Shown one piece after another: positions 6,266 through 62,117 of a stretch of 64,000 bases of DNA. Origin of the DNA: an uncultured Gammaproteobacteria bacterium (GTDB taxonomy: Bacteria; Patescibacteriota; Microgenomatia; UBA10105; UBA927). Each line of letters begins with the position of its first letter. Position 1 is the first letter of the stretch. The notes beneath the pieces were generated by a model, which was not told the DNA's origin, searched no databases, and worked only from the letters and a program-made list of their open reading frames with translations. The DNA lies in assembly GCA_964629685.1 (NCBI GenBank), contig CAZVTT010000001.1:769319-833318 (forward strand), written 5' to 3'. Position numbers and translations under genes: made by a program.

Positions 6266-6268
6266 ACC

Positions 6269-11961: not shown

Positions 11962-12024
11962 GTGGTATAAATTTGGATTTTGCTTCCGTGTGCGTATAGC
12001 CGTATTATAACAGAGGTGTTACAC

Positions 12025-13554: not shown

Positions 13555-13575
13555 GTTTAGTACAATATAACTGCT

Positions 13576-18102: not shown

Positions 18103-18107
18103 CCCTT

Positions 18108-45403: not shown

Positions 45404-45734
45404 GTATTTACCAAATATGCAGATAAATTGGATCGGGGATTTGCCCAAAATACTGGTGTACGTAGTTTTAGTTTTCTGCGTAGTGATGGTAAAACAATTG
45501 CCGTACTTCAACGTGTATTTACCACTATCTTATTGTCTGATTCTTTTATGGGTAGCCGGTATTTGGATGTTTAGACCAAAACAATGGGTAACGCTGACCA
45601 TAAGCTTGTTATTCTTTATTGTAGGCGCTGTAGTACATGTTACCGGTGATACCTCCGTAGCGGGTGAGTTTGTAACGGCTGGCTATTATATTTGCTTTAT
45701 CCTATTTTTCCGGAATTTGCGGGTTACGTTATGA
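45396..45734 (+). CDS. Small (112 aa) 3-4 TM membrane protein, function unknown (GtrA-like flippase candidate)
   Basis: Almost entirely hydrophobic. Translationally coupled at both ends (8-nt and ATGA overlaps) between two giant membrane proteins. Confidence 0.35.
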   Translation: MNKYLPNMQINWIGDLPKILVYVVLVFCVVMVKQLPYFNVYLPLSYCLILLWVAGIWMFRPKQWVTLTISLLFFIVGAVVHVTGDTSVAGEFVTAGYYICFILFFRNLRVTL

Positions 45735-47782
45735 AACGTATATTTGGGTCTGGTATCGTGAATCTACTTGTCAGTCTACTGCTTGTTTGTTTCGTTTATC
45801 GCGGATGGTTTACCGGTTCACTGGTTTTCGGTGGTGATCATTTTTTCCCTCCATATAGCTCAATGGTATCGGGGTTAGCTGACAGGCCATACGCGTGGGA
45901 TCCTTTTAAGGGAAATGGTTTAGGCGGGGTGAATCTTGGCACATTATGGATAGATACTTATGCGCAGGTGGTACCGAATTTGCTTCAGAGGGTCGGTATT
46001 CCTCCTGCTATGACGCAAAAAGTAGTATTTACGTGGTTGTTTTTAGTTCTGGGATTTGTAAGTATTTCGTTCTTTTCCCGAGTACTATTTGGCCTTTCCG
46101 GATTAACTGGTTGGTATAGCGGAGTATTGTATCTTACCAATACTTATATTCTCATGGTTATGAGCGGTGGGCAATTCGGAATCGGTATGGCGTATGCCAT
46201 TGCGCCCCTCGTGTTAGGTCTGACAGTTCTGTGTCTGCGGGGTACACCTGCGGTTTCTCCTCCGAAATTATCATATTTGTTGGGATTTGTGATTTCGATT
46301 CAGATTTTTTTCGACTTGCGGTTAACGTATATTACTCTGTGGATGGTTTTGGGAGCTTGTATCGCGTATATAATTCTTTCGCGCCCGGAGACCCGTATGC
46401 AGCAGCTTCTAAAAGTGGCAGTACGAATAGGTGTCCTCCCGGCAGTAGTAGCAGTCTTGCCTCACATGTTTTGGTTACTCCCGTTACTCGTTTATCGGGT
46501 AAATCCGGTGGAACAACTGGGTGCCGCATATACGAGTATCTCCGCCGTCAGATTCTTTAGTTTTGCCGATTATTCGCATGCCTTTACCTGGTTACATCCG
46601 AATTGGCCGGAGAACATATTCGGAAAAACATATTTCCTGCAGCCGGAATTCTTGATAGTTCCTATAGTGGTTTTTTCCGCGCTGTGGGTTATACCTAAAG
46701 TTGCAAATTTAGAACATTGGGTTACATTCCGAATTAGGTTACTGATGCTGTTGGCACTTATCGGAATATTTTTATCGAAAGGAACGCAAGAGCCGTTGGG
46801 ATTTATATATCTTTGGTTATATACATATATTCCGGGTTTCTTTCTGTTCCGTGATCCGACCAAATTCTATCTCGTAACTGCAATTGCTTATTCAGTTTTA
46901 ATCCCAATTTCGCTTGCACTGATATACAGATGGGTTTCTATGAACCCATTTATGAAGACATATGTAAAGTCGCGCTGGGTTGTGCAGGGGGCTTTGCTTG
47001 TCGTAGCTATCGGTTGGCTTGTACTTATAAGACAAAGTATTACAGGAGAAATCCGGGGCACGTTTTATCCCAAACGTATTGCACCTGAATACGGCGTATT
47101 TGCAGAGCATATGCATGCTGACACAGCATTTTATCGAACGCTTTGGTTACCCAGACATCATTTTGCCTCATACTTTGATGTAAGTCATCCGGTGGTGGAT
47201 GCGGACCTCCTCATTCCCGGAGCTGGAATATATGACACAATAGAGTATCTGCAACTAGCTTCTGCATATACAAAATTATCTGACATTGGAGTACGGTATA
47301 TTGTAGTTCCGTATGATACGGAACAGAACATTTTCACCATAGACCGGAAATACGATCACGCTCAATATACGGCGGCAGTAGAAACGCTGAGTACGATTCC
47401 CTGGCTTACAAAAGTTAACGGTTACGGATCTTTGGGAGTTTTTGAGCTCAAACGATATCTGCCCAAGTTTTCCTTAACACGTGCTCCGGAATTAAGGGAC
47501 GTTGCGTATACTATGCATGAACCTACGAGGTTTACTGTTGAGTTGCCCGCTGGAAGTAGTCTCTTACGGTTTAATGAGAGGTATGCACCCGGCTGGGTAT
47601 TACGGACGGGTTCACGGAAAGTAACGGCAGTTGCGGACGGAGACGGAATGATGGAGTTTCCTGTAGCTGGTTTACGTGATTCGGTAGAAATTTATTTTGA
47701 ACCACAGCAACTGCTCGAGCGATCCGGATTAATTGCAATAGTAATGCTGATTATTTTATCCGTTGGAGTACTATTTTTTTAG
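45731..47782 (+). CDS. Large (~683 aa) polytopic membrane protein, unknown family, paralog 3 (more divergent)
   Basis: ATG 45731 (MKRIFGSG) overlaps the upstream TGA. About 13 TM helices in the N-terminal ~430 aa, then a hydrophilic domain and a C-terminal TM helix (LIAIVMLIILSVGVLFF). The first loop GGDHFFPPYSSM..AWDPF resembles the other two. Confidence 0.45.
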   Translation: MKRIFGSGIVNLLVSLLLVCFVYRGWFTGSLVFGGDHFFPPYSSMVSGLADRPYAWDPFKGNGLGGVNLGTLWIDTYAQVVPNLLQRVGIPPAMTQKVVFTWLFLVLGFVSISFFSRVLFGLSGLTGWYSGVLYLTNTYILMVMSGGQFGIGMAYAIAPLVLGLTVLCLRGTPAVSPPKLSYLLGFVISIQIFFDLRLTYITLWMVLGACIAYIILSRPETRMQQLLKVAVRIGVLPAVVAVLPHMFWLLPLLVYRVNPVEQLGAAYTSISAVRFFSFADYSHAFTWLHPNWPENIFGKTYFLQPEFLIVPIVVFSALWVIPKVANLEHWVTFRIRLLMLLALIGIFLSKGTQEPLGFIYLWLYTYIPGFFLFRDPTKFYLVTAIAYSVLIPISLALIYRWVSMNPFMKTYVKSRWVVQGALLVVAIGWLVLIRQSITGEIRGTFYPKRIAPEYGVFAEHMHADTAFYRTLWLPRHHFASYFDVSHPVVDADLLIPGAGIYDTIEYLQLASAYTKLSDIGVRYIVVPYDTEQNIFTIDRKYDHAQYTAAVETLSTIPWLTKVNGYGSLGVFELKRYLPKFSLTRAPELRDVAYTMHEPTRFTVELPAGSSLLRFNERYAPGWVLRTGSRKVTAVADGDGMMEFPVAGLRDSVEIYFEPQQLLERSGLIAIVMLIILSVGVLFF

Positions 47783-49003: not shown

Positions 49004-49989
49004 ATATACTGGTAACTGGCGGGGCTGGGTATATCGGTTCTATTACAAACAGGGTACTTACTGATGCCGGTCATAAAACCATCGTTTTTGACAATTTGTC
49101 TTCCGGTTATGCGGAAACCGTTCCGGCGAATCTAATAGTGGGAGATCTCCGGAACAAGCAGGATATACATAAAGTATTCTCGGATAATCATATAGACATT
49201 GTCGTACACTTTGCCGCTAAGGCGTTGGCGGGGGAGTCGATGAAGAATCCGTATGAATATTACGAAAATAACGTTCTGGGAGGATTAAATTTAGTCGAAG
49301 TCATGCGGGAGCATAATTGTAAGCAGATAATTTTTTCATCAACCTGTGCAGTATACGGATACCCGGATACTCTTCCGGTAACGGAAGAAGAGAAAATTAA
49401 TCCGGAAAGTGTTTACGGTTCATCCAAGCGGATGTTTGAAGAAGTGCTGGAGTGGTATGAAACGGTATACGGAATCAGACATGTAATTCTCCGGTATTTT
49501 AATGCCGCAGGGGCAGCTCTGGATGGTTCGTTAGGCGAACGTCACGTACCCGAAACGCACATTATTCCGATTGCTTTAGATGTAGCTTCAGGAAAAAAAC
49601 CGGCATTTTCCGTGTTCGGAAACGATTACGATACCGCGGACGGAACTTGTGTGCGGGACTATATTCACGTATTGGATTTGGCAATCGCCCATAAACAGGC
49701 TGCCGAGTATTTGGATAATAAAGAACACGGATCCGTGGTAGTGAACTTAGGTGCCGGTAAAGGATATAGTAATCTTGAAATATTGGACACAATTGAGCAG
49801 GTTACAGGCAAAAAAGTGAATAGAAAAATTGAACCGAGGCGCCCTGGTGATCCCGCATGTATATATGCTCGCACGGATAAAGCTAAAAGAGTATTGGGGT
49901 GGACACCTCAGTATTCAGATATAAAGACTATTATCGAATCCGCCTGGAAGTGGCACATTACTTTAGAGCAAGCCGGACCAACCGTTTAA
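49000..49989 (+). CDS. galE: UDP-glucose 4-epimerase
   Basis: MNILVTGGAGYIGS...FDNLSSG, YGSSKRMFE (YxxxK), RYFNAAGA and the overall 330-aa length make a classic GalE. The track ORF begins at 48985; ATG 49000 is preferred. Confidence 0.8.
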   Translation: MNILVTGGAGYIGSITNRVLTDAGHKTIVFDNLSSGYAETVPANLIVGDLRNKQDIHKVFSDNHIDIVVHFAAKALAGESMKNPYEYYENNVLGGLNLVEVMREHNCKQIIFSSTCAVYGYPDTLPVTEEEKINPESVYGSSKRMFEEVLEWYETVYGIRHVILRYFNAAGAALDGSLGERHVPETHIIPIALDVASGKKPAFSVFGNDYDTADGTCVRDYIHVLDLAIAHKQAAEYLDNKEHGSVVVNLGAGKGYSNLEILDTIEQVTGKKVNRKIEPRRPGDPACIYARTDKAKRVLGWTPQYSDIKTIIESAWKWHITLEQAGPTV

Positions 49990-51192
49990 CTTCATTTTTG
50001 TCAGAGTTTTCGAATATACACGATTCCACGTCGTATTTTTGGCGAAGAGGAAGGCTGATTTTTTCATACGATTATAAAGCCTGGGATGAGCACATAACTG
50101 CAGTATTCCGTCAGCAAAAGCTTCAGCGGTATCCTTTCGGATAATGCCGGCGTTTTTACTTACAAGTTCTTTACCCAAAGGTGGTACATCGGTAGTTATT
50201 ACGGGCAGGCCGCAACCGAGATAAAGTCTGATTTTTGAAGCATCTGCGTATCTCCGTAATGTTCCAGGAACATCCCTGTATGGAGCCAATCCTATCATGA
50301 AGTGTTTAATTTCTTCTGCTAACTTTGTCGTATCGGTGTATAGGCCGTGGAATAGTACATGACGTTGAACATTAAGTCTCCTGGCGTATCGCTGTAGCTC
50401 CTGCTCTCTTTTCCTTGGGCCGCCATAGAAATGGAGTTTAACATTCGGATATCTTTTCTTAACATACTGTAGAGCATGAATAGCAAGCTCAGGGCCGTTT
50501 TCATATCCAAGAGATCCGGCAAAAACCAACGTCAGCGGTTTAATATTCTTTGCGGATATAAAATGGATTTGCGAAGGAAATAGTCCGTTATGGACTACGA
50601 TTACCGGTTTGCAGCGTTCTCGGGAGAGACCAGCGGCTATTCTCGCCGGTAGCATTGCCGGCGAAAGGTCCCAAATGAAATCAGCGTGATAGCAGCAGAA
50701 TCTATCCAGGTATGTGTACACTCCATTCATAAAAACATTGTCATACCGTTTTGGAGAATAGTCTGATACGTAATAGACTACGGTTTCTATGATTCCAAAG
50801 TATTTCAGAATAATTCCGGCGAGGGTATATACACATTCCAGTCCTATAAATAATTCATATTTTTTCCGGGAACGCATCACATATTCAAATACCGAAAAGA
50901 AATCCCGAAATTTAAATATTGGTTGCGTCTGTGTGACACTATTATTTTTTGATTGTAACCATAGCTGTAACACCCGGCTTACGATAGAGGTCTGACGGCG
51001 TGTCCGTTGTACACCGGAGTATCTGTCAAAATATGTGAGGACTGTACTGCTTCCCGGATGCGTTCCGTCTAGTAAATCAATCTGGGAAGCCCGCTGACCA
51101 AAGAATGATATAAGCGGTTCTATCATTCCGTTAAGCGGAGTACGTTCACCGTTCTGCCAAAATGAGAATGTTGCAATAAGTACTCTTTTCAT
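49963..51192 (-). CDS. Glycosyltransferase family 4-like; paralog of 31474-32637
   Basis: C-terminal LYLGCGLPVITTDVPPLGKEL and shared internal motifs (see 31474). Confidence 0.65.
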   Translation of the reverse strand: MKRVLIATFSFWQNGERTPLNGMIEPLISFFGQRASQIDLLDGTHPGSSTVLTYFDRYSGVQRTRRQTSIVSRVLQLWLQSKNNSVTQTQPIFKFRDFFSVFEYVMRSRKKYELFIGLECVYTLAGIILKYFGIIETVVYYVSDYSPKRYDNVFMNGVYTYLDRFCCYHADFIWDLSPAMLPARIAAGLSRERCKPVIVVHNGLFPSQIHFISAKNIKPLTLVFAGSLGYENGPELAIHALQYVKKRYPNVKLHFYGGPRKREQELQRYARRLNVQRHVLFHGLYTDTTKLAEEIKHFMIGLAPYRDVPGTLRRYADASKIRLYLGCGLPVITTDVPPLGKELVSKNAGIIRKDTAEAFADGILQLCAHPRLYNRMKKSAFLFAKNTTWNRVYSKTLTKMKLNGWSGLL

Positions 51193-51221
51193 GCTCGAAG
51201 AACACAGTGGGCAAGGATGTG

Positions 51222-52358
51222 TTATCTGGGTTTGCTTCTGCTTATTTTTGTGGTGTTAAAAAAGGATTCGATTTTATCTGCTACCTGTTGCTGCTCTGAC
51301 TGGGTAATATGCGGGAAAAAGGGTAATGATACTATTTGTTTGGCCGCTTTTTCGGAAACAGGTAAGTCACCCCGTCTATATCCTAATTCCCTGTATGCCG
51401 GTTGAAGATGTATCGGCAGAGGATAATGAACAGCTGTATGTATACCTTGTGTCTCAAGATATGCTTGCAAAGCGTCACGTCTTGGTGTCTGTATTACATA
51501 TAAATAGTAAACGTGTTCCGCATCCGGGTGTGTGGCCGGAAGCGTAATGGGAAAGTGCCTCATGTTTTTGTTATACCATTCCGCCTTTGTTTTCCGTAGC
51601 GTATTCCACGCAGCCAGTTTTCTAAGTTTTACGGACAATATCGTTGCCTGCAGTGCATCAAGTCGGCTGTTGTATCCTTTTACGGGATGTTGATACCAAC
51701 CGGCTCTCCCCACGTTTCTCAGTATCGTAATTTGTTTAGCCAGATTTGCCTGCTTAACCGTTATTGCCCCGCCATCTCCGTACGCGCCCAGGTTTTTAGT
51801 CGGATAAAATGAATATACTACAGCGTCTGCGTAGTGCATGAGTGGTTTACCTCTAAATGTTGCTCCGTGAGATTGGCAGGCGTCCAATACAATTTTAAGT
51901 TTGTATCGTTTAGCCAGAGCAGCTATTTTATCAAGTTGTGGCGGTTGCCCATATAAACATACCGGGAGTATCGCCCGGGTTTTTTTGTTTATTTTCGCCT
52001 CAATAAGATCCTGATTCATATTCAGCGTATCCGGGTGTACATCAACAAAAACGGGAGTTGCTCCGGCATAACTAATCCCCAAGGCCGTTGCAATGAATGA
52101 ATGAGAGACGGTAATTACTTCATCTCCTGGACCGATACCAAGCGCTTTTAGTGCCATCAATAAGCCATCAGTTCCGTTGGCTATGCCAATTGCGTGAGAA
52201 CTGTGCGTTGCCTGTGCAAACTGTTTTTCAAATAGTTCAACCTGGGAACCGAGAATATAGCTTCCTTTACGCATGAGCGTAAGTACGTTCTTTTCTATCT
52301 CATTCTGCAGTTCAGCATGCTGCCTGGCAAGATCGACAAACGGTACATTTCGTTTCAT
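51222..52358 (-). CDS. DegT/DnrJ/EryC1/StrS-family PLP-dependent sugar aminotransferase (WbpE/ArnB/PglE-like)
   Basis: VPFVDLARQHAELQNEIEKNV...GSYILGSQVELFEKQFA...AIGIANGTDGLLMALKALGIGPGDEVITVSHSFIAT. Confidence 0.85.
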   Translation of the reverse strand: MKRNVPFVDLARQHAELQNEIEKNVLTLMRKGSYILGSQVELFEKQFAQATHSSHAIGIANGTDGLLMALKALGIGPGDEVITVSHSFIATALGISYAGATPVFVDVHPDTLNMNQDLIEAKINKKTRAILPVCLYGQPPQLDKIAALAKRYKLKIVLDACQSHGATFRGKPLMHYADAVVYSFYPTKNLGAYGDGGAITVKQANLAKQITILRNVGRAGWYQHPVKGYNSRLDALQATILSVKLRKLAAWNTLRKTKAEWYNKNMRHFPITLPATHPDAEHVYYLYVIQTPRRDALQAYLETQGIHTAVHYPLPIHLQPAYRELGYRRGDLPVSEKAAKQIVSLPFFPHITQSEQQQVADKIESFFNTTKISRSKPR

Positions 52359-52810
52359 AATATTTTTGCCGGATTTCCTGCAACGGTAGTGTTCGGCGCA
52401 ACATCCGAGACTACCACGCTACCAGCTCCTACCGTGGCATTTTCACCTATCGTTAGGCCGCACATAATGGTTGCGTTGGCTCCGATGGCCGCACCTTTTT
52501 TTACGGTGGTTTTTTCTACCGTCCAGTTGCTTTTCTGTTTAAGTTCTCCGTTATCCGTGGTAGCTCTGGGATTTCGGTCATTAATAAAACAGACATGTGG
52601 TCCGATAAAAACGTTATCCTCGATAGTGACACCTTCCGGTATAAATGCGAAGGCCTGAATTTTAACGTTATTTCCTATTTTCACATCCGGTTTAATTTCA
52701 ACAAAACTTCCTATCCGGCAATTGGAGCCGATAGTGCATCCATAAATATTTACCTGTTCCGGATGAAAAATAACCGTATCTTTCCCGATAATGGTATGCG
52801 GTCCTATCAT
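52355..52810 (-). CDS. Hexapeptide-repeat sugar N-acetyltransferase (WbpD/PglD-like short LbH)
   Basis: 151 aa that is almost entirely hexapeptide repeats (IGSNCRIGSFVEIKPDVKIGNNVKIQAFAFIPEGVTIEDNVFIGPHV...). ATGA overlap with the aminotransferase. Confidence 0.7.
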   Translation of the reverse strand: MIGPHTIIGKDTVIFHPEQVNIYGCTIGSNCRIGSFVEIKPDVKIGNNVKIQAFAFIPEGVTIEDNVFIGPHVCFINDRNPRATTDNGELKQKSNWTVEKTTVKKGAAIGANATIMCGLTIGENATVGAGSVVVSDVAPNTTVAGNPAKIL

Positions 52811-52811
52811 T

Positions 52812-53822
52812 TTATTTAATGGAAATAAATTTCCCGTTACGTTTTAATGATTTTTCGGCTGCATCAAGTATCTCAATCACCCGTAATCCGGCATGACCGT
52901 CGGATCTGGGTTTGCGCTTCTTCCGGATAGAATCAACAAAATGTTTGCTCATGAAGTGCAGCGCTTCTATATCATCTAGCCTTGGAGAATACATATCTCC
53001 CACTCGATACTGAAACCGGCTGATGTTAATATCCTGCGCATTTTGTTCAAATGTAATGGCGCGGTCATACACTTTTATTTTTTCTATCGGTTCCATATCA
53101 TTGTACACTATCATTTTTTTCAAACCGGAAATCAAGGTCATCCGCAGCTTTACCGGTGCTAACCAATTTACGTGTATATGACTAATAAGATTATCGTCAA
53201 ACTTAACAGTGACATAAACGATATTTTCCAGGCCTTTTTTGATATGGGAGGAACCGACGGCAGATACGGCTATCGGTTTTTTGCCGATTATATAGTCCAT
53301 GATCGAAATGTCATGCGTTGCCAGATCCCACAACACGTTGGTCCGTTGCTGAAATAGTCCAAGATTTACACGGACAGAATCAAAATAACATAATTTTCCG
53401 AGTGTGTTTTTATCTACTATTTGTTTAATTTTTTGGACAGCAGCGGAGTATACAAACGTGTGATCAACCATCAGGGTAACATGGTTTTTTTCCGCCAAAT
53501 GTACCAATGATTTGGCTTCCTTAAGGGATGCCGCCATTGGTTTTTCCAGGAGGACATGTTTTCCCGCTTGAATTGCTTTTTTTCCGATCGGGAAATGCGT
53601 ATGCACTGGGGTTGCGATAACTACGGCCTGAATTTGTTTGTTTTTGATAATACTGTCGATTGACGTTACGGTCTCTATGGTGGGAAATGCATCTTTAACT
53701 GTTTTTAGTTTCTTTGCATCAATATCACAGACATGACTCACCAGCACACCGGGAAGTGAATAAAAATTTCTTACGAGGTTAGGCCCCCAATAACCACATC
53801 CTATGACGGCAATTTGTAACAT
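52812..53822 (-). CDS. Gfo/Idh/MocA-family NAD(P)-dependent oxidoreductase (WbpB-like nucleotide-sugar dehydrogenase)
   Basis: MLQIAVIGCGYWGPNLVRNF forms the N-terminal Rossmann domain. EKPMAASLKEAKSLV is the typical EKP motif. Confidence 0.8.
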   Translation of the reverse strand: MLQIAVIGCGYWGPNLVRNFYSLPGVLVSHVCDIDAKKLKTVKDAFPTIETVTSIDSIIKNKQIQAVVIATPVHTHFPIGKKAIQAGKHVLLEKPMAASLKEAKSLVHLAEKNHVTLMVDHTFVYSAAVQKIKQIVDKNTLGKLCYFDSVRVNLGLFQQRTNVLWDLATHDISIMDYIIGKKPIAVSAVGSSHIKKGLENIVYVTVKFDDNLISHIHVNWLAPVKLRMTLISGLKKMIVYNDMEPIEKIKVYDRAITFEQNAQDINISRFQYRVGDMYSPRLDDIEALHFMSKHFVDSIRKKRKPRSDGHAGLRVIEILDAAEKSLKRNGKFISIK

Positions 53823-53896: not shown

Positions 53897-53923
53897 TTGA
53901 CGGTTGGGTACATTTCGTATATA
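53897..53923 (+). promoter_or_regulatory. Putative sigma70-like promoter (TTGACG-N15-TATATA) for the plus-strand block that starts with the GT2 at 53949
   Basis: TTGACG at 53897-53902 and TATATA at 53918-53923. The spacing is short. Confidence 0.2.
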
Positions 53924-53948
53924 CCTCGTCTATTGGTCAAAAAGCAAT

Positions 53949-54623
53949 ATGGAATTATCAGTAATCTTCCCTGTTCATAATGAAGCCGGTACAATTGAAA
54001 AAACAATAAGTAGGGCCGTAACCGTACTCAAGGAAGCAGGAATTTCCTGTGACATCATTTGTGTAGAAAACGGTTCGACGGATACGTCTGCACAAGTGTT
54101 GCAACAGATAGTGCGAAAATACCGAAATGTCCGTATGATCACTTCGGCAAAAGGGTGGGGGAATGCAGTAAAGCGGGGACTTTCGGAGGCAAAAGGAAAA
54201 TATTTATGTTACATGGTTTCGGATTATCAGGTAGATCCCCAACACATCGTTACGGTTTATAGGGAACTGATGAAAAATCCGGGTACACTTGTTAAAGTAA
54301 CCCGGATTACGCGTGAGAATAGACAGCGTCTGATTAATTCGCGGACATACAACATCTTCGCAAAATTATTATTCGGATTTTCTACAATAGATATAAACGC
54401 AACGCCAAAAGTGTTTGATCGTAAGCTCATTTCCGGATATACCTTTATATCCCCCAACATCGCATTCGATTTGGAGTTACTGAAGAAAGTTACCCACGAC
54501 GGTGTTAATGTTATAGATATACCAGTAAAAAGTCTGCGTCGGGATGCCGGGACATCTACTACAAATTGGAAATCAGTTTTGGAAATGGTGCGCTATATGC
54601 TTAGATTTCGAATATCGGTCTGA
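53949..54623 (+). CDS. Glycosyltransferase family 2 (Dpm1/GtrB-like polyprenyl-phosphate sugar synthase candidate)
   Basis: MELSVIFPVHNEAGTIEKTI...ICVENGSTDTS...YMVSDYQVDP. The track ORF uses TTG at 53904; ATG 53949 is preferred. Confidence 0.7.
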   Translation: MELSVIFPVHNEAGTIEKTISRAVTVLKEAGISCDIICVENGSTDTSAQVLQQIVRKYRNVRMITSAKGWGNAVKRGLSEAKGKYLCYMVSDYQVDPQHIVTVYRELMKNPGTLVKVTRITRENRQRLINSRTYNIFAKLLFGFSTIDINATPKVFDRKLISGYTFISPNIAFDLELLKKVTHDGVNVIDIPVKSLRRDAGTSTTNWKSVLEMVRYMLRFRISV

Positions 54624-54671: not shown

Positions 54672-55610
54672 ATGTCAAAATCAACATCACCGTCCAAGTT
54701 TCAACTGATCATGATATCCGCTATGTATGAAAATGGTGGAAACACCATTCATCGCCATCTTGATGGTCATCCTCAACTTTTTGCGTATCCTTTTGAATCT
54801 CAACCGGGAACATTCATGGTTGCGGATTGGATGACAAGTATGTTTCCGCAAAAATACCGCTGGCCTGAATTTGGTTTGGAAGGAAACGTAGAACGCGATT
54901 ACGAAGCGATTATTGATGAAGAATTTAAAGTACGGGTAAATACTCCGCACGTTTCCAAATTTCGGGATCTATCAGACATGGGGTGTACCAATAAAGACCG
55001 CAAGGATCTTTTTATAAAATTTATGAAAAACAAGCCGCGTACCCGCGGTAACTTAATGGAAGCGTTTTACCGATCAACTTTTGACGCGTGGACCACGTAT
55101 AACCGAACGGGAAAAGAAGTAGCGTATGTCGGATACAGTCCAATTATCGGTGTCGATACGGATAAAATAGTAGCGGATTATCCCAACGCGATTGTCTTAC
55201 ACATAGTCAGAAATCCGTATGCAGCATTTGCGGAAACGAAACGTCGTCCAGTTCCGTATGGTTTGGAGAAATATATCCGGATATGGAACTATATGCAGTT
55301 AACCGCCTTAAATTTTGCAAATGTATATCCGAAGAATTTGGTAATGGTTCGTTATGAAGATATGGTGGAAAATAAAGAAAAATTCTTCAAAGATTTGAGC
55401 AAAAAATTGGGCATCTCCTATAGTGATACCATGTTATACCCGTCCTGGAATGGGAGGAGATTAGATCACCAGTATCCGTGGGGTACCATAGAAATTCCGA
55501 CCAAAGAAGCGAATAAAGAAACGACGTACGAATTAACTAAGGATGAATTTTCCAGGGTAAAAGCACTGACAATGGTGCTCAATAAAGTCCTGGGATATGA
55601 TCATCTTTAA
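54672..55610 (+). CDS. Sulfotransferase-family protein (Sulfotransfer_3-like) with a degenerate 5'-PSB motif
   Basis: ISAMYENGGNTIHRHLDGHPQL sits where the PKSGTT-type P-loop lies. LHIVRNPYAAFAE is 3'-PB-like. VRYEDMVENKEKFFKDLSKKLGI matches the sulfotransferase C-terminal motif rYEDLvxxPexxlxxlxxfLG. Confidence 0.45.
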   Translation: MSKSTSPSKFQLIMISAMYENGGNTIHRHLDGHPQLFAYPFESQPGTFMVADWMTSMFPQKYRWPEFGLEGNVERDYEAIIDEEFKVRVNTPHVSKFRDLSDMGCTNKDRKDLFIKFMKNKPRTRGNLMEAFYRSTFDAWTTYNRTGKEVAYVGYSPIIGVDTDKIVADYPNAIVLHIVRNPYAAFAETKRRPVPYGLEKYIRIWNYMQLTALNFANVYPKNLVMVRYEDMVENKEKFFKDLSKKLGISYSDTMLYPSWNGRRLDHQYPWGTIEIPTKEANKETTYELTKDEFSRVKALTMVLNKVLGYDHL

Positions 55611-56709
55611 ACACAATCAACTTCCGGACGAGCGTGTGATTCACGCATATGATGGTGTGCGTAAGTCAATCTTTCTGACGAAAGCAGATTATGCTATTGA
55701 ACGCGATTCTCCGAAGTTCCCCGACATCAGCAAGCAGTTGGAACAAATTCTGATTAAATATACTGGTGCAAATGTACACGTAACCTCTGTAACCGTAGAG
55801 CCTCTGGGTACGTTTCATACGATTTATCGAGTTACTACACCGAATGAACGCTACGTCGTAAAGCTCAATGCGTTTCCCGATCAGTACCGGGAGCTGTCTT
55901 TCTTGTTGGAACATTGGGTAAATATTCAGTTGGAGCAAGCAGGAATAGTATATTGTCCTACCATTGCAACAGATGTTTCCAGATCGTTTATTAATACGGA
56001 TATTCTCGTTCAGCGTCTGATTCCGGGAGATACATTGTATAGTCTTGCGGCCGGAAAAGAATTACCACCGATCCTGTTGGCTGATGTCGGGTCACATATC
56101 GCCAAGGTACACAGGTTAAAATGTAAAGGCTTCGGTCAAATTTCTTTGCAGAGCCTTCTTGCAGAAGGTGTTGCACGGGGTCAGATGAATTCCTGGTTTG
56201 AGTACTTAGATACACGGTTTAGTGATCATATACAATTCTGTATTCATCAACAGATATTGAATGCAGATAGTTTATCAATCCTGCAATCTCTCAGCCAAAC
56301 CGTAAAACGGAAAATATCCGTCAGGCAAGGGTGTTTACTTCACGGAGATGTTGCAAACCACAATATTATTGCGGATGGTAATCATGTTTCGGCGGTTTTG
56401 GATTGGGAAGATGCAGTTATTGGCGATAGTCTATACGATGTCGCATACTGGGGAACTGCTTCGTTCGGTCACGATGGCTGGATTAAAGAATTCCACACTG
56501 GATACAATGCAATTACTCCCTTTTCAGCAACGGATAATCTGGCGTATTGGTTTTATTTTTTTCGGATATCACTCGCCAAAGCCGTCATCAGACATAAAGA
56601 ACAAAAAGATAGATCACTAACAATTGCCAGGTTAAAGCATAGTCTTTCCGTTCTCGATGGACTTCTTTATAATAGCCGAGTATTATCAGCATGTCTGAGT
56701 ACCGTATGA
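55597..56709 (+). CDS. APH/choline-kinase-family small-molecule kinase (phosphotransferase enzyme family)
   Basis: HGDVANHNIIADGNHVSAVLDWEDAVIGDSLYDVA contains Brenner's motif HGDxxxxN plus the DWE motif. An N-terminal nucleotide-binding lobe is present. Confidence 0.7.
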   Translation: MIIFKHNQLPDERVIHAYDGVRKSIFLTKADYAIERDSPKFPDISKQLEQILIKYTGANVHVTSVTVEPLGTFHTIYRVTTPNERYVVKLNAFPDQYRELSFLLEHWVNIQLEQAGIVYCPTIATDVSRSFINTDILVQRLIPGDTLYSLAAGKELPPILLADVGSHIAKVHRLKCKGFGQISLQSLLAEGVARGQMNSWFEYLDTRFSDHIQFCIHQQILNADSLSILQSLSQTVKRKISVRQGCLLHGDVANHNIIADGNHVSAVLDWEDAVIGDSLYDVAYWGTASFGHDGWIKEFHTGYNAITPFSATDNLAYWFYFFRISLAKAVIRHKEQKDRSLTIARLKHSLSVLDGLLYNSRVLSACLSTV

Positions 56710-57677
56710 AACATAAAACTATTCTGATTACCGGTGGGTTGGGATTTATCGGAACTAACGTTATCCGTAGACTGCTTGCTAATACTCCCGATGATATCCT
56801 GATTTTTGATAAAATTACCTATGCCGGACGTGTTGATAATCTTCCTCAAGATAAAAAAACCCGGTCCAGAATACATTTCTATAAAGGGGATATAACCAAA
56901 AAAAGAAGTGTGTTTGCTGCCGTAAAGGAAGCGGATATCGTTGTTCATTTGGCCGCTGATACGCATACGTTCAGATCCTTAACGTATGCAGTCCCCACGG
57001 TTCTTACGAACGTATTGGGAACCGCGTTGTTACTCGAAGCGTCCAGAAAACATCCGGTGGAACGATTTATTCAAATATCCAGTTCCGAAGTATACGGTAA
57101 CTCTCTTCCTGATGTAGAGATGGATGAAAATCATCCGCTTAACCCGGTAAGTCCGTATGCCGCATCTAAGCTGGCAGCCGACCGACTGGCATATTCATTT
57201 TATCAGTCGCAGGGTGTGCCGACTACGGTATTACGTTTTTTTAATGCGTACGGTCCGTATCAGTTCCCGGAAAAAATGGTTCCGTTATTTATTACCCGTT
57301 TATTAAAAAAGCAACCGATTTCCCTAAATCACGGAGGTCGTCAGGTAAGGGACTGGGTTTTTGTGGAAGATCATGCAAAAGCCATTGAAACAATTATTAC
57401 GTCTCCTGCAGATTTAGTTGTAGGTGAAGTTTTTAACATAGGTACCGGTACTGCCACATCCATTCGCGAAGTTGCAGAATTAATTTGCCGTCAGTTAAAC
57501 TTAGGCAATGAATATATACGGATTGCCGAATCATCAAAAGTGGAAACAATGGGCAACGTGGGAATTTCGCGTAAGGTAAAACAGAAACTGGGTTGGGGTC
57601 CGCAAACGTCCCTTACGGAAGGGTTAAACCGAACTATTGATTGGTATAAAGAAAATCAGTCTTGGTGGGACAGGTAG
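56706..57677 (+). CDS. NDP-hexose 4,6-dehydratase (RmlB-like SDR)
   Basis: ATG 56706 overlaps the upstream TGA. ILITGGLGFIGTNVIRRLL; IFDKITYAGRVDNL is the RmlB-type DKLTYAGN motif; YAASKLAADRLA is YxxxK. Confidence 0.7.
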   Translation: MKHKTILITGGLGFIGTNVIRRLLANTPDDILIFDKITYAGRVDNLPQDKKTRSRIHFYKGDITKKRSVFAAVKEADIVVHLAADTHTFRSLTYAVPTVLTNVLGTALLLEASRKHPVERFIQISSSEVYGNSLPDVEMDENHPLNPVSPYAASKLAADRLAYSFYQSQGVPTTVLRFFNAYGPYQFPEKMVPLFITRLLKKQPISLNHGGRQVRDWVFVEDHAKAIETIITSPADLVVGEVFNIGTGTATSIREVAELICRQLNLGNEYIRIAESSKVETMGNVGISRKVKQKLGWGPQTSLTEGLNRTIDWYKENQSWWDR

Positions 57678-57678
57678 T

Positions 57679-58608
57679 ATGAGTCGTAAGCGTGTCGTGA
57701 TTACCGGTGGAGCTGGTTTTGTAGGTGCAAACCTTGCACGGAAGCTTCTGAAGAAATACGATGTTCATCTTATTACCCGCGAAAAAAGTAACTTGTGGCG
57801 ACTTACGGATATTTTAAACAATGTTACCATCCATCCCATCGGACTACATAATATTGACGCATTAGAACAGTTTTTTTTACGGATAAAGCCGGAGTATATT
57901 CTGCATACTGCTACATATGGCGCATATCCGTCGCAACAGAATACGGATGAATTATTTGAAGTAAATATTAAAGGAGTGTTAAACCTACTCACCGCATTGT
58001 CCGATATATCCTATTCCCGGTGTATTATTTTCGGTAGTTCATCCGAATACGGTAAGAAAGAAAAGCCGATGCGTGAAACGGATATTCTTGATCCTAATAA
58101 TATGTACGCCGTAACAAAAGCAACACAAACGCATCTGGCCCGGTACTATGCGCAGGTACATCAAAAGCCCATTACTATATTCAGATTATTTAATGTGTAT
58201 GGACCATACGAAGAAAAGGGGAGGTTAGTACGGAATGTCATAGAAGCGTCCCTAACCGGGGACACAGTCGCGCTAGCGACAGGAAAAGAGGCGCGTGATT
58301 TTATTTATGTTGACGATATTGCTAATGCTTGTGAAATGGCATTTACCTCTACACTATCTCCCGGGGAAATATTTAATATCGGTACGGGAGTACAAACGTC
58401 TATATATCAATTGGCAAAATTGGTGGTTAAATTGACCAGGAGTAAAAGCGTTATTGAACGGGGAGTATATCCGGGCAGACCGTGGGATTCATTTCATTGG
58501 AAAGCAGTTACAAAGAAAACGGATACTATCTTGCATTGGCAGAGTTCTACTGCTCTTGCAGCCGGCTTAACAAAAACTATTACCTGGTATAAAAAAAATC
58601 ATGAATAA
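57679..58608 (+). CDS. NAD-dependent epimerase/dehydratase or reductase (SDR)
   Basis: MSRKRVVITGGAGFVGANLARKLL; YAVTKATQTHLARYY (YxxxK). The track ORF begins at 57637; ATG 57679 is preferred because it directly follows the upstream stop. Confidence 0.7.
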   Translation: MSRKRVVITGGAGFVGANLARKLLKKYDVHLITREKSNLWRLTDILNNVTIHPIGLHNIDALEQFFLRIKPEYILHTATYGAYPSQQNTDELFEVNIKGVLNLLTALSDISYSRCIIFGSSSEYGKKEKPMRETDILDPNNMYAVTKATQTHLARYYAQVHQKPITIFRLFNVYGPYEEKGRLVRNVIEASLTGDTVALATGKEARDFIYVDDIANACEMAFTSTLSPGEIFNIGTGVQTSIYQLAKLVVKLTRSKSVIERGVYPGRPWDSFHWKAVTKKTDTILHWQSSTALAAGLTKTITWYKKNHE

Positions 58609-59428
58609 ACTCACTAAAACCGAACGGAATAAACTTCAGGAAGCATCATATTCAGTAAAAGAAGGAATTTTAGATATTTCATATCGTGCCAAAACCGGTC
58701 ATATAGGATCTGCTCTTTCTATAGCTGACTTGGTTGCTGTACTTTATGAGTCGTCGTTGCATATATCTCGCGCAATACTGAATTCTAATAAACGGGATAG
58801 ATTTATTTTAAGTAAAGGTCATGCAGCCGCAGCACTTTATGCTGCACTCTATTACAAGAAAATATTATCCAAAAAGGAATTCATGTCTTTCGGACATGAG
58901 GAGGGTGGTCTATGTGAGCATCCGGAAATTCATGATTCCGGCGTGGAGATGTCGGCCGGTTCGTTAGGACATGGCCTGAGTTTTGCCACGGGAATTGCTC
59001 TGGGGATGAAACGGCAGCGGATAAAGAATACTGTGTATGTATTAATTAGTGACGGCGAATGTGGAGAAGGTTCTATCTGGGAGGCAGCGCAACTTGCAGC
59101 AACGTTAAAACTGGATAATTTAGTCGTAATAGTGGATTTTAATAATTGGCAATGTTTCGGCCGTTCTACGGAAATATTGGCTCTCGAGCCGTTTCAACAG
59201 AAATGGGAAGCTTTCGGTTTTGCCGCCAGAACGATAAATGGACACGATATTGACGAAATAGTCGGCGCGTATAGATCAGTTCCATTCCGGAAAAACAAAC
59301 CGAGCGTTGTGATTGCCAAAACTATAATTGGTAAGGGAATAAGTTTATTTGAGGATCAGATAAGTGCGCACTACAAAGTGTTTACCGAAGAAGAGTATAT
59401 GCAGGCAAAACTGGAGATACAATTATGA
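58601..59428 (+). CDS. Transketolase, N-terminal (ThDP/PP-binding) subunit of a split transketolase
   Basis: KTGHIGSALSIADLVAVLY...ILSKGHAAAALYAALY and GSLGHGLSFATGIALG...LISDGECGEGSIWEA carry the ThDP-binding GDG-type motif. Confidence 0.85.
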   Translation: MNKLTKTERNKLQEASYSVKEGILDISYRAKTGHIGSALSIADLVAVLYESSLHISRAILNSNKRDRFILSKGHAAAALYAALYYKKILSKKEFMSFGHEEGGLCEHPEIHDSGVEMSAGSLGHGLSFATGIALGMKRQRIKNTVYVLISDGECGEGSIWEAAQLAATLKLDNLVVIVDFNNWQCFGRSTEILALEPFQQKWEAFGFAARTINGHDIDEIVGAYRSVPFRKNKPSVVIAKTIIGKGISLFEDQISAHYKVFTEEEYMQAKLEIQL

Positions 59429-60345
59429 GAAGTGCATTTATAAGAGGTCTTCTGGAAGCGGCAAAAACGGACAAATCAATATTCTTGTTAACTGGAGATT
59501 TAGGGTACAGATTTCTTGAACCATTCAGGGACGCGTACCCTGACCGTTTTCTAAACGTCGGCGTGGCTGAAGCAAACTTAGTAACGGCGGCTGCCGGTCT
59601 GGCTACTGCCGGATATACTCCGGTAATATATTCTATCGCCACCTTTATGACTATGCGGCCTTATGAACAAATACGTGATGATATCGTGTTACAACATTTA
59701 AACGTTAAGCTGGTCGGTATCGGGGGAGGTTTGGCATACGCCATGGCAGGTCCAACACACCATTCTCTGGAAGATATTTCCCTGATGAGAACACTTGCGT
59801 CGATGGCCATTATTGTTCCTACTGAACCCACTGAGGCGTATAAAGCCACAAAAGAGATGGTGTTGCAAAAGGGTCCGGTGTATCTCAGATTGGAAAGAAA
59901 TCCGGAGCAGGTCGTTACTGCAACTTCACGGTTTACTCTCGGTAAAGCGAACCAAATTAACAGCGGTAAGTCCGTATGTCTTATGTTTACCGGTACTAAA
60001 CGGTTACTGTCTGAACGTATCGCCGCTATTTTATATGAAAAAAAGGGAATAGAACCGACAATAGTCGCGTTCCCTACAGTCCGACCGCTTGATAAAAAAC
60101 TGGTACTCGGGATGGCGAAATCTCATCAACTGCTGGTTACGATTGAAGAACATCTCCCGTCGGGTGGGTTTGGTTCTGAAGTTCTGGAAACTATTTCGGA
60201 TTCGATACCTCCCGGAAAATTACGGGTTATCCGTATGGGTATTCCAGGTCATTCTCATCGGTCGGCTGGGTACCATACGTTATGTTCTCAGGCAGGATTT
60301 ACGCCTGAAGCTATTGCTAAACGGATCTGTTTATACCTCCCGTAG
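59425..60345 (+). CDS. Transketolase, C-terminal (Pyr and C-terminal domain) subunit of a split transketolase
   Basis: FLLTGDLGYRF...FLNVGVAEANLVTAAAGLATAGYTPVIYSIATFMTMRPYEQIR; ATGA overlap with the N-terminal subunit gene. Confidence 0.85.
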   Translation: MRSAFIRGLLEAAKTDKSIFLLTGDLGYRFLEPFRDAYPDRFLNVGVAEANLVTAAAGLATAGYTPVIYSIATFMTMRPYEQIRDDIVLQHLNVKLVGIGGGLAYAMAGPTHHSLEDISLMRTLASMAIIVPTEPTEAYKATKEMVLQKGPVYLRLERNPEQVVTATSRFTLGKANQINSGKSVCLMFTGTKRLLSERIAAILYEKKGIEPTIVAFPTVRPLDKKLVLGMAKSHQLLVTIEEHLPSGGFGSEVLETISDSIPPGKLRVIRMGIPGHSHRSAGYHTLCSQAGFTPEAIAKRICLYLP

Positions 60346-60417
60346 TAGTCAGTTTTTCGCTTTGGGTTCTCACAGAGCATTTTCTGCGGTAGAATGTCAC
60401 TAGTCCCACGCGTATAT

Positions 60418-60978
60418 ATGAAAATTGCCATAGATATTAGTCAGGTCTGTTATGAAGGTACAGGAGTTGCTCGGTATATATCGCAATTGGTACCGGCTTT
60501 ACTGCATGTACACTCTGCTCATACATTCGTGCTTTTTGGCTCATCGTTTCGGCAACGTGAGCGCCTTAAGCGTTTTGTAGAACCATTGTGTGCAGATAAT
60601 CCCCGCGTCAGTTCGGTAATATTGCCTTTCCCACCGGCATTCTGGGACGTTTTATGGAATAGATTGCATCTGGTTCCGATTGAGTGGATTATAGGGAACA
60701 TAGATGTATTTTGGAGTAGTGACTGGACGCAGCCTCCGGTTTCAACCGCGGTTGCGGTAACGACTATTCATGATATTTCCATACTCCGGAATCCCGAAAC
60801 GTTCTCGGAGCACATCAGAGAAGTACATACCCGTAAATTAGCAAGGTCTGTGGCAAAATGTAAGGCTTTTTTTTGTGACTCGGAGGCGACGAAAAAAGAC
60901 GTACATCAGACTCTCCGTATACCACTTGAACAGTTATATGTGATATACCCAGGATTGCACCAGGGGGCAAACCTATGA
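60418..60978 (+). CDS. GT4 N-terminal-domain-only protein (truncated paralog; possible pseudogene or split GT-B half)
   Basis: MKIAIDISQVCYEGTGVARYISQL... aligns with the N-termini of 22155 and 60975 but stops after ...YVIYPGLHQGANL, the domain boundary. No C-terminal EGFGLP domain. The stop overlaps the next ATG. Confidence 0.5.
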   Translation: MKIAIDISQVCYEGTGVARYISQLVPALLHVHSAHTFVLFGSSFRQRERLKRFVEPLCADNPRVSSVILPFPPAFWDVLWNRLHLVPIEWIIGNIDVFWSSDWTQPPVSTAVAVTTIHDISILRNPETFSEHIREVHTRKLARSVAKCKAFFCDSEATKKDVHQTLRIPLEQLYVIYPGLHQGANL

Positions 60979-62117
60979 TATTGGCAATCGACGGATATGA
61001 AGCAAATAGTGGTCATAGGGTAGGCGTCGGTGAATACGCCTATCAATTGCTATGTCAGATGCATAGTCTTATCGGGCAAATGCCACCGGGTAAAAGACAT
61101 ACCGTCCGGGTGTACTTACCTCAAAAACCCAGATCGGATATGCCTAAGAAAACCGGTTGGTGGCAATACCGTGTGAGAAAACCTGGTCGGTTATGGACGC
61201 TTTTTGCATTGCCGATCTCATTATGGCTTGATCATCCCAGAGCCGATGTGATTTTTTCGCCTACACACTACGTACCCAGATTCACCGCTATCCCCCGGGC
61301 AATGGCGATTATGGATTTGTCGTATTTGGAATACCCATCACTCTTCAGGGCCAAAGACTTACATAAATTAGTTCATTGGACTGCCTATTCAGTAAAAAAT
61401 GCGAAAAAGATTTTTACCATTAGCGAGTTTAGTAAGAATGCTATAATGAAGACGTACGGGCTATCAGGACGGGAAGTTATAGTAACATATCCCGGGTTAA
61501 TTATGACGAAAAAGAATAAAAAAGCTGATACCGGAGTTGAACTGCAGCAGAAATATAACTTAGGTTCACGATATATTCTTTCCGTTGGGACGCTCCAGCC
61601 CAGGAAGAATTATGTCCGACTCATTGAAGCATTTTCGTTGTTACAACAGAAATCAGATACTGCAGATTTGCAATTGGTAATTGCAGGGAAGAAGGGTTGG
61701 TTGTTTGAAGAAATTCTCGCTGCTCCCCGGAAATACGGTGTAGAATCAAAAGTTATTTTTTTGGATTATGTCCCTGATAAAGATTTGCCCTCATTGTATG
61801 AACATGCTATCTGTTTCGCGTTACCGAGTCTGTATGAAGGGTTCGGATTACCGGTTCTCGAAGCTATGGCTAACGGGTGCCAAGTGGTCGTAAGTAATGT
61901 ATCCAGCCTTCCGGAAATCGCAGGAGATGCAGGCATTTACTGTGAGCCTGAGGATGTCGCGAGTATCACTACAGGATTAAGCAAGGCGGTAAAAGACTTC
62001 GGTTCGGCGAAAGCAAAGGAGCGAATTAGTTGGGGAAAAGATAGGGTAAAATTATTTAATTGGAATGATGCTGCGGAGAAAACACTCGCAGTGCTCGAAC
62101 AAATAGTAAAAAAGTAA
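60975..62117 (+). CDS. Glycosyltransferase family 4 (full length)
   Basis: N-domain MILAIDGYEANSGHRVGVGEYAYQLL...VTYPGL. C-domain YILSVGTLQPRKNY...EGFGLPVLEAMANGCQVVVSNVSSLPEIAG. Confidence 0.75.
   Translation: MILAIDGYEANSGHRVGVGEYAYQLLCQMHSLIGQMPPGKRHTVRVYLPQKPRSDMPKKTGWWQYRVRKPGRLWTLFALPISLWLDHPRADVIFSPTHYVPRFTAIPRAMAIMDLSYLEYPSLFRAKDLHKLVHWTAYSVKNAKKIFTISEFSKNAIMKTYGLSGREVIVTYPGLIMTKKNKKADTGVELQQKYNLGSRYILSVGTLQPRKNYVRLIEAFSLLQQKSDTADLQLVIAGKKGWLFEEILAAPRKYGVESKVIFLDYVPDKDLPSLYEHAICFALPSLYEGFGLPVLEAMANGCQVVVSNVSSLPEIAGDAGIYCEPEDVASITTGLSKAVKDFGSAKAKERISWGKDRVKLFNWNDAAEKTLAVLEQIVKK

Follow-up and report, generated by a model that had tools for sequence, protein, structure and literature searches.

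We analyzed a 64-kb stretch of DNA (64,000 nt of contig CAZVTT010000001.1, hereafter the window) from an uncultured, probably candidate phyla radiation (CPR) bacterium, and found that the transketolase (TK) encoded there by two separate genes combines a conserved catalytic core with an altered substrate pocket. Its thiamine diphosphate (ThDP) diphosphate-binding (PP) subunit, TktN (58601-59428, + strand), and its pyrimidine-binding and C-terminal subunit, TktC (59425-60345, + strand), belong to a large clade that shares these alterations. Across many independent loci, members of this clade lie next to genes for sugar-nucleotide-type short-chain dehydrogenases/reductases (SDRs) and glycosyltransferases. 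We tentatively favor the interpretation that TktN/TktC is a TK-type ThDP enzyme that was recruited to glycan biosynthesis and no longer acts on sugar phosphates.

Catalytic core and substrate pocket of TktN/TktC

We aligned the two subunits with E. coli TktA, the N part of human TK and the split TK of Carboxydothermus (6YAK/6YAJ), and residues are given in E. coli numbering. The E. coli TktA sequence used differed from 2R5N at one residue. The pair carries the complete transketolase domain set, with Pfam scores of 141 bits for PF00456 on TktN (Transketolase_N, E = 4e-41) and of 103 and 72 bits for PF02779 (Transket_pyr) and PF02780 (Transketolase_C) on TktC. The competing E1_dh model reached 33 bits on TktN, compared to the 141 bits of Transketolase_N, and TPP_enzyme_C scored 21 bits. 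TPP_enzyme_N and TPP_enzyme_M had no match in the Pfam scan, so that by domain the pair is not of the E1-type alphaKADH2 or YerE-like kind. NF004559 gave 239 bits for TktN and 168 bits for TktC; its cut-off of 488 applies to the full-length protein and is unreachable by a half-length subunit alone. Among solved structures, the pair comes closest to the Carboxydothermus split TK, whose chains match TktN (6YAK, E = 8e-57) and TktC (6YAJ, E = 2e-42).

The alignment showed that TktN keeps His26, His66, His100, His261, Asp155 and Asn185, and that TktC keeps Arg358, Glu411, His473 and Arg520. The ThDP/metal motif in TktN reads SDGE...DFNN, for a canonical GDG-X(25-30)-N. On this basis, the pair is predicted to retain the machinery to form and hold a ThDP-bound two-carbon carbanion.

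Several other positions are changed. In TktN, Arg91 is replaced by Gly, Gly154 by Ser, Ile189-Asp190 by Cys-Phe and Gly262 by Tyr, and in TktC, Ser385 is replaced by Arg within a loop that is one residue shorter, His461 by Gly and Glu468-Asp469 by Met-Ala. From the work of Schneider and Tittmann, we take Arg358, Ser385, His461 and Arg520 to be the holders of the substrate phosphate and Asp469 to be the reader of the acceptor C2 hydroxyl. The canonical set for phospho-sugar binding is incomplete in the window pair: Arg358 and Arg520 are present, but Ser385, His461, Asp469 and Arg91 are replaced. In E. coli TK, the substrate phosphate is touched by Ser385, a salt bridge joins Asp469 to Arg91, and the variant S385Y/D469T/R520Q is shifted away from phospho-sugars (PMC5073344). 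Since both partners of the Arg91-Asp469 bridge are gone, the changes point to coherent remodelling and not to decay, and the acceptor channel appears to have lost its phosphate- and C2-hydroxyl-binding residues. The split TK of Carboxydothermus hydrogenoformans, which is that organism's only TK, shares the two-chain architecture and the cofactor and catalytic residues with the window pair (6YAK/6YAJ; PMC7661550). However, it has canonical residues at all changed positions, with Arg91, Gly154, Ile189-Asp190, Gly262, Ser385, His461 and Asp469 where the window has Gly, Ser, Cys-Phe, Tyr, Arg, Gly and Ala.

Beyond the window pair, these alterations define a widespread clade. Among the 120 best TktN homologues (44-100% identity), the catalytic histidines are invariant or nearly so, Ser154 occurs in 117/120 and Tyr262 in 111/120, and none has Arg91 (0/120). 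The 120 best matches to a profile built from 19 diverse TktC sequences show the same pattern, with Gly461 in 118/120, Asp469 missing in 119/120, Glu411 and His473 in 120/120, and Lys or Arg at position 520 in 109/120. Metagenome loci found with a TktN profile carried the non-canonical signature in 78 of 80 cases and the canonical one in the other 2. Named members of the clade come from metagenome-assembled genomes (MAGs) of Woesearchaeota, Omnitrophica, Acidobacteriota, Armatimonadota and Elusimicrobia, and one homologue comes from Candidatus Gottesmanbacteria, a hint that the window is of CPR (Microgenomates) origin. Their public labels are only 'transketolase', 'transketolase family protein' or 'DXP synthase'. 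A scan of a genome collection with the single TktN sequence returned only two distant relatives, from Christensenella and an Anaerolineaceae MAG, at 36-37% identity. An identical TktN is present on metagenome contigs of SRR14271333, SRR14271365 and SRR14271370 and on an NCBI contig.

A neighbor-joining tree of the concatenated subunits, which carries no support values, placed the canonical split TKs (6YAK/6YAJ and the metagenome loci L082 and L057) outside the non-canonical radiation and grouped the window with loci L006, L007 and L010. An earlier reading, made from the sequence alone, had held that a housekeeping TK would not normally be found in a glycan operon. This view is supported by the large clade with a remodelled pocket to which the pair belongs, which does not fit an ordinary pentose-phosphate enzyme in a chance location.

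The cassette and its conserved neighbors

TktN and TktC are preceded by two extended SDRs, the RmlB-like SDR1 (56706-57677, alternative start 56691; Pfam Epimerase and GDP_Man_Dehyd) and SDR2 (57679-58608; Pfam Epimerase, E = 1.4e-49). All four are genuine + strand open reading frames (ORFs), as the sequence-only reading had them, at the coordinates it gave, and their domains were assigned with Pfam, NCBIfam and the solved relatives. That reading had drawn the block as these four genes. They do belong together, but the operon begins ~2.8 kb further upstream with three + strand genes that had been omitted. These encode a small family 2 glycosyltransferase (GT2) as the operon's first gene (53904-54623; Pfam Glycos_transf_2, E = 1.2e-20; the metagenome gene call uses an alternative start at 53949, giving 224 aa), a sulfotransferase-fold protein (Sulfotransfer_3, 54672-55610; PF13469, E = 4e-12, residues 127-252 only) and a phosphotransferase resembling APH and fructosamine kinases (55597-56709; Pfam APH, E = 4.5e-21). 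All overlaps and gaps among the seven genes from GT2 to TktC are ≤50 nt, and because every junction is tight a single operon fits. The ATGA overlaps that were said to link the block exist between the APH-like gene and SDR1 (56706-56709) and between TktN and TktC (59425-59428). SDR1 and SDR2, however, are separated by a gap of 1 nt, and SDR2 and TktN share an 8-nt overlap, ATGAATAA.

We compared the gene order in ten close places: the window, its locus on a second metagenome contig, and loci L006, L007 (with L008), L009 (the Gottesmanbacteria genome GCA_001779095.1), L010 (identical to L015), L011, L012 (a Woesearchaeota genome), L013 and L014. Each of the ten has an extended SDR immediately upstream of TktN. 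Eight of these SDRs are orthologues of SDR2 (36-53% identity), among them those that adjoin TktN in L006, L007, L009, L010, L011 and L013; the upstream SDR is of the GDP-fucose-synthase type in L014 and of a third type in L012. Among the distant metagenome loci, an SDR is found directly upstream of TktN in 19 of the 45 that have at least 1.3 kb of upstream sequence. Where 5 kb is available on both sides, an extended SDR occurs within 5 kb in 19/22 and a small GT2 in 9/22. This SDR-TktN arrangement is far beyond chance. Other neighbors among the clade loci are Bac_transf, DegT, a TylF-like methyltransferase, NTP_transferase, an NDP-sugar C-methyltransferase, B12-radical SAM enzymes, Zn-ADH, GT2, YfhO and PMT_2. 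At the ten close places, we found no rpe, rpi or other pentose-phosphate gene next to TktN/TktC, and the closest gene of that type is a TAL_FSA/GHMP-kinase fusion ~6.7 kb off in L011. The expectation that such pairs recur in glycan loci is supported: the clade shows synteny with SDRs of the sugar-nucleotide type and with glycosyltransferases across many independent loci.

The partner that is conserved is not the one that had been expected. The sequence-only reading had paired the TK with the RmlB-like SDR1, but SDR1 is represented at only 3/10 close places (in L006 and L010 besides the window itself), with one more orthologue at the distant locus L076, compared to 8/10 for SDR2. SDR1 as an obligatory partner of the TK was ruled out on this count. 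In the nearest subclade, the conserved unit also includes the small GT2, the sulfotransferase-like protein and the APH-like kinase. The latter two accompany the pair in the window, L006, L007, L009 and L010, and the small GT2 heads the operon in the window, L006 and L007 and stands right after TktC in L011 and L013. Two loci have an unusual layout. In L009 (4871-12171), the cassette is interrupted by ORFs of 721 and 753 aa without a Pfam match, located between SDR2, TktN and TktC, and its TktN has a 27-aa insertion ahead of the ThDP motif. In L092 (5459-11900), two non-canonical TktN/TktC pairs are arranged in inverted orientation around a small GT2 and an SDR2 orthologue.

The two SDRs of the window differ in their likely roles. 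The best NCBIfam model for SDR1 is dTDP-glucose 4,6-dehydratase (TIGR01181) at 294.7 bits, below the cut-off of 365.1, and its best solved relative is P. horikoshii RmlB (2HUN, 216 bits). SDR1 has YAASK, and at the end of beta2 it has Asp (ILIFDK, aligned with INIDK of 2HUN), as in NAD-binding SDRs. Its motif SSSEVYG replaces the STDEVYG of 2HUN, so that the catalytic Asp of RmlB is missing and a Ser stands in its place. The resulting Ser-Glu pair is also found in GDP-mannose 4,6-dehydratase and UDP-xylose synthase, and for this reason 4-oxidizing chemistry is still plausible. SDR1 is plausibly a 4-oxidizing dehydratase or decarboxylase, and it is a candidate nucleoside diphosphate (NDP)-hexose 4,6-dehydratase and not a proven RmlB. 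The 4,6-dehydratase label that it was first given thus keeps its RmlB likeness, but with a score under the TIGR01181 cut-off and without the RmlB Asp it is plausible only.

For SDR2, no NCBIfam model came near its cut-off, and the best solved relatives (GalE 4ZRM, RmlB, UXS and RMD) reached only ~100 bits. Its motifs are GSSSEYG and YAVTK. Seven SDR2 orthologues of the close loci, including that of the window, have Arg or Lys at the position at the end of beta2 where NAD-type enzymes have Asp; the distant orthologues in L024 and L068 differ at this position. By the usual SDR rule, Arg/Lys at beta2 suggests an NADP(H)-type enzyme and hence a reductase. The probable role of SDR2 is that of a ketoreductase, dependent on NADP(H), with a sugar nucleotide as its substrate, and it does not look like a second dehydratase. 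UDP-sulfoquinovose synthase was considered for both SDR1 and SDR2 and rejected, at 25-31 bits versus a cut-off of 575.

The remaining cassette members are less readily assigned. The GT2 weakly resembles the polyprenyl-phosphate sugar synthases PgfS, ArnC, PpgS and AglJ, with NCBIfam scores far under the cut-offs, and it has orthologues of 37-47% identity in L006, L007 and L011. The sulfotransferase-like protein is the most conserved member of the cassette, with 51-71% identity in L006, L007, L009 and L010 and up to 71% in Gottesmanbacteria. Its only solved relatives are weak matches to the CurM/OLS sulfotransferase domains (E = 0.005-0.015). Because its presumed loop for the sulfate donor 3'-phosphoadenosine 5'-phosphosulfate reads ENGGNT in place of RSGST, it may not be a sulfotransferase. 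The best solved relative of the APH-like protein is hygromycin-B 4-O-kinase (E = 2e-9), and orthologues of 26-33% identity come after the sulfotransferase-like gene in L006, L007, L009 and L010. We consider it probably a kinase for a sugar hydroxyl, judging by this family resemblance.

The glycosylation island around the cassette

A Pfam scan of the window ORFs shows that the whole 64 kb is a glycosylation island. It holds at least eight GT-C enzymes, many GT2 and GT4 genes, a flippase, four additional extended SDRs and methyltransferases. The GT-C battery spans 2944-21394 on both strands and comprises six PMT_2 proteins, YfhO (7944-10313), GT87 (13576-14847) and PTPS_related (4625-6265). The scan of this region left out the ORF at 18108-19766, and the ORFs of 540-550 aa at 10303-11961 and 19763-21394 had no Pfam match. 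Three further ORFs, at 32634-35378, 41894-45403 and 45692-47782 (914, 1169 and 696 aa), had no Pfam match at E ≤ 1e-5. We found no GmhA-type or pentose-phosphate genes in the 64-kb window, and tRNA and Rfam scans of the window returned nothing.

Upstream of the cassette lies a divergent operon (49963-53822, - strand) that encodes a GFO_IDH_MocA oxidoreductase, a hexapeptide acyltransferase, a DegT aminotransferase and a GT4. This operon is similar to the WbpB/WbpD/WbpE set for 3-acetamido sugars. Right after TktC, a 194-aa ORF (60394-60978) contains the N-terminal domain of a GT4 only and overlaps by 4 nt with a complete 380-aa GT4 (60975-62117). This short ORF could be what is left of a duplicated GT4, or else half an enzyme that stands alone. 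At 27285-28898, the island also includes a radical SAM gene of the B12-binding kind. Radical SAM genes were also observed near non-canonical pairs in L012, L013, L049 and L087, those in L012 and L013 being B12-binding, and the two may be recurrently associated. Finally, GC skew is positive in 31 of 32 two-kb bins of the window (1-64000) regardless of gene orientation, and cumulative skew climbs without a turn. Strong strand disparity and mostly unidirectional replication have been described for a complete Microgenomates genome (PMC7143001).

Possible functions of the pair

The retained catalytic residues argue for the formation of a C2 carbanion, and the loss of pocket residues together with the sugar-nucleotide context argues for a non-phosphorylated carbonyl sugar as its reactant. 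The pair most likely either adds a two-carbon unit to a keto- or aldehydo-sugar that is not phosphorylated or removes one from it. In the pathway that we propose, a 4-oxidizing SDR would provide this sugar, most likely as an NDP-4-keto-(6-deoxy)hexose; the source would be SDR1 where it is present and other SDRs of the island elsewhere. The TK would add a two-carbon ketol unit to the sugar carbonyl, resulting in a C-branched or chain-extended sugar with a hydroxyacetyl group, and the donor would be a ketose, hydroxypyruvate or, less likely, pyruvate. SDR2 would subsequently reduce the new side-chain ketone, as YerF does after YerE and as the paulomycin octose ketoreductase does, and its Arg/Lys at beta2 would fit a reductase that uses free NADPH. 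The small GT2 would load the finished sugar onto polyprenyl phosphate, the GT-C enzymes of the island would use the lipid-linked donor outside the membrane, and the kinase-like and sulfotransferase-like proteins would decorate or activate a hydroxyl. Chain extension at an aldehyde in place of ketone branching, the cleavage direction and an acetyl-type donor are possible alternatives to this scheme.

Published systems provide precedents for such chemistry. The split-gene TKs of the miharamycin and amipurimycin clusters are proposed to transfer a hydroxyacetyl group to a keto-sugar, giving a tertiary alcohol, and 13 further Streptomyces clusters have split-gene TKs, according to PMC12247030, which summarizes Romo 2019, Wang 2020, Zhang 2021 and Krug 2024. 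By description, these systems resemble the window cassette in their separate N and C genes, sugar-modifying cluster and adjacent oxidoreductase. They differ in that they make secondary metabolites (peptidyl nucleosides) and are all reported from Streptomycetes. The setting of the window cassette, with its GT2, kinase-like and sulfotransferase-like genes, is instead an island for cell-surface glycans in an uncultured and probably CPR bacterium.

YerE/YerF, which make yersiniose, and the alphaKADH2 pairs use a ThDP enzyme to place a C2 unit on an NDP-4-keto-deoxy sugar, after which a reductase reduces the branch ketone (PMC4753412). The alphaKADH2 pairs are PDH-E1-like alpha/beta proteins of the aldgamycin, avilamycin, kibdelomycin and paulomycin clusters, each with a ketoreductase. 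This proposed logic is shared with the window cassette, but the families differ, being of the acetolactate-synthase type and E1 type versus the TK type. The donor in these systems is pyruvate and the branch is acetyl, whereas a TK-type enzyme would be expected to add hydroxyacetyl. The two-carbon branching chemistry that the sequence-only reading had invoked thus has a published proposal for split-gene TKs (PMC12247030). Its hypothesis of a C-branched or chain-extended deoxy sugar is partly supported, gaining from the pocket, the synteny and this precedent but losing SDR1 as a conserved partner.

A split TK that works on a non-phosphate sugar is also known from catabolism: SqwGH is the 6-deoxy-6-sulfofructose transketolase of sulfoquinovose degradation. 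This pathway is covered in PMC11659671. By description, SqwGH is set apart from the window pair by its catabolic role, a sulfonate substrate that mimics phosphate and the lack of a link to SDRs or glycosyltransferases. DesAB of Clostridium scindens is a further precedent for the proposed pathway, as an example of a divergent split TK that is able to act on a ketol at a tertiary carbon, with a ketone as the second product (PMC3735941). A literature search for TKs encoded in capsule or O-antigen loci brought up nothing but papers on the pneumococcal ula operon and on expression, and the phrase 'split transketolase' matched no paper.

Several observations weigh against the proposed pathway. TKs normally accept aldehydes and not ketones. 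SDR1, the proposed source of the 4-keto sugar, is missing from most loci and lacks the RmlB Asp, and no nucleotidyltransferase was found in the 64-kb window. Arg358 is retained and position 520 is mostly Arg or Lys, so that an anionic group is presumably still bound, and this could be a phosphate or the diphosphate of an NDP. Histidines of the His26/66/100/261/473 type are kept in both the TK and the DXS families, and the retained residues therefore do not discriminate between a TK-type and a DXS-type (pyruvate) donor. The neighbor-joining tree is a rough one. Some members of the clade occur in non-glycan settings: in L061 (4782-8624), a lipoyl-E2 gene (2-oxoacid_dh) lies directly upstream of the pair and adh_short downstream, and in L084 (8499-13254), an FGGY kinase and a fucose-isomerase-like gene lie beside it. 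Because of these two loci the wider clade does not seem uniform in function, and it probably holds several functions. We infer the acceptor, the donor and the product alike, and according to PMC12247030, sugar branching by the Streptomyces split TKs has itself never been shown in vitro.

The TK reaction is reversible, and the retained His100 and His473 are compatible with a dihydroxyethyl-ThDP intermediate whichever way it runs. The pair might therefore shorten a chain, taking a glycolaldehyde unit off a 2-ketose-type or side-chain-ketol sugar made by the neighboring SDR, so that a shorter aldehyde or ketone sugar is left, and passing the C2 unit to a cellular aldose. The steroid-17,20-desmolase DesAB from Clostridium scindens provides a model for such ketol removal: this divergent split TK shares its operon with a dehydrogenase and its genome with ordinary TKs, and it acts on a non-phosphorylated ketol on a tertiary carbon, with a ketone as the other product (PMC3735941). 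The likeness is one of description only, and DesAB differs in being catabolic and in acting on steroids and not sugars (PMC3735941). An NAD-type SDR adjoins the pair in the subclades of L028, L054 and L077, as cleavage would suggest. However, no heptose, octose or ketose pathway genes were seen in the window or the cassette, and SDR2 looks like an NADPH reductase, which is a better fit after carboligation. We therefore regard ketol removal as unlikely.

The pair could also be a dedicated isozyme with canonical sugar-phosphate chemistry that supplies precursors, for instance sedoheptulose-7-P to make heptoses, or xylulose/ribulose-5-P to make pentitol phosphates. All catalytic residues as well as Arg358 and Arg520 are present in the window protein, the operon includes the APH-like kinase, and PfkB or FGGY kinases lie beside some clade members. 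These points are outweighed by the replacement of His461, Ser385, Asp469 and Arg91 across the clade and by the universal neighbor, which is a sugar-nucleotide-type SDR and not an isomerase. Furthermore, neither the window nor the cassette has a GmhA/HddA-type gene or a cytidylyltransferase. On account of these missing genes and of the lost phosphate-binding residues, a supply of precursors for heptoses or pentitols was rejected as the leading interpretation, and we hold such an isozyme to be distinctly improbable.

Split TK/E1-like pairs with lipoyl-E2 or ACP partners, NapB/D and QncN/L, reportedly serve tetrahydroisoquinoline antibiotics, in work attributed to Peng et al., 2012, in PNAS. An analogous role would be that of an acyl source, in which the ThDP-bound C2 unit is oxidized and passed on to become an O- or N-linked glycolyl or acetyl substituent of a sugar. 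The position of the L061 pair between lipoyl-E2 and adh_short would suit this role, as would the DegT aminotransferase and hexapeptide acyltransferases nearby in the window. Nevertheless, genes for E2, lipoyl or ACP proteins are absent from the window cassette and from all ten close places, and hexapeptide acyltransferases use acyl-CoA, which makes an acyl source very unlikely here.

Least probable, at a remote level, is that the pair is the organism's sole TK serving the non-oxidative pentose-phosphate pathway, with an incidental position in the glycan island: many CPR bacteria and archaea do have a split TK as their only TK (PMC7661550; PMC7143001) and public annotation calls the relatives simply 'transketolase', but the phospho-sugar-binding residues are remodelled, SDR/glycosyltransferase synteny across distant lineages is unexpected for a housekeeping gene, a complete Microgenomates genome has its TK genes in an operon with fructose-bisphosphate aldolase (PMC7143001), and L092 carries two such pairs in a single glycan locus.

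Two-carbon branching by ThDP enzymes is already known for the YerE and E1 types, and for the TK type it has only been proposed, in ~15 Streptomyces clusters, none of them characterized. The window points to a split TK-like clade with a coherent loss of the phospho-sugar pocket, whose members adjoin sugar-nucleotide SDRs and glycosyltransferases at loci for envelope glycans in many uncultured lineages. It is conceivable, though rather doubtful, that the clade is a large unrecognized TK-derived family that forms C-C bonds on non-phosphorylated sugar nucleotides or lipid-linked sugars, and that branched or extended envelope sugars are common. Such a family would be defined by Gly461, a non-acidic residue 469 and the absence of Arg91, and would reach from CPR bacteria and DPANN archaea into further uncultured phyla, with relatives named as Acidobacteriota, Omnitrophica, Elusimicrobia and Armatimonadota.

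On this doubtful reading, hydroxyacetyl- or dihydroxyethyl-branched or extended sugars would reach the GT-C transferases via polyprenyl phosphate, and sugar branching of the TK type, until now proposed for Streptomyces antibiotics, would for the first time be a feature of primary envelope glycans. If the chemistry proposed for TktN/TktC is correct, the pairs would provide soluble test cases for ketone and aldehyde carboligation on sugars by TKs, and they would caution against counting such genes as pentose-phosphate transketolase in metabolic reconstructions. The same chemistry would predict new sugar structures in the envelopes of CPR bacteria and DPANN archaea, whose glycans are chemically unknown.

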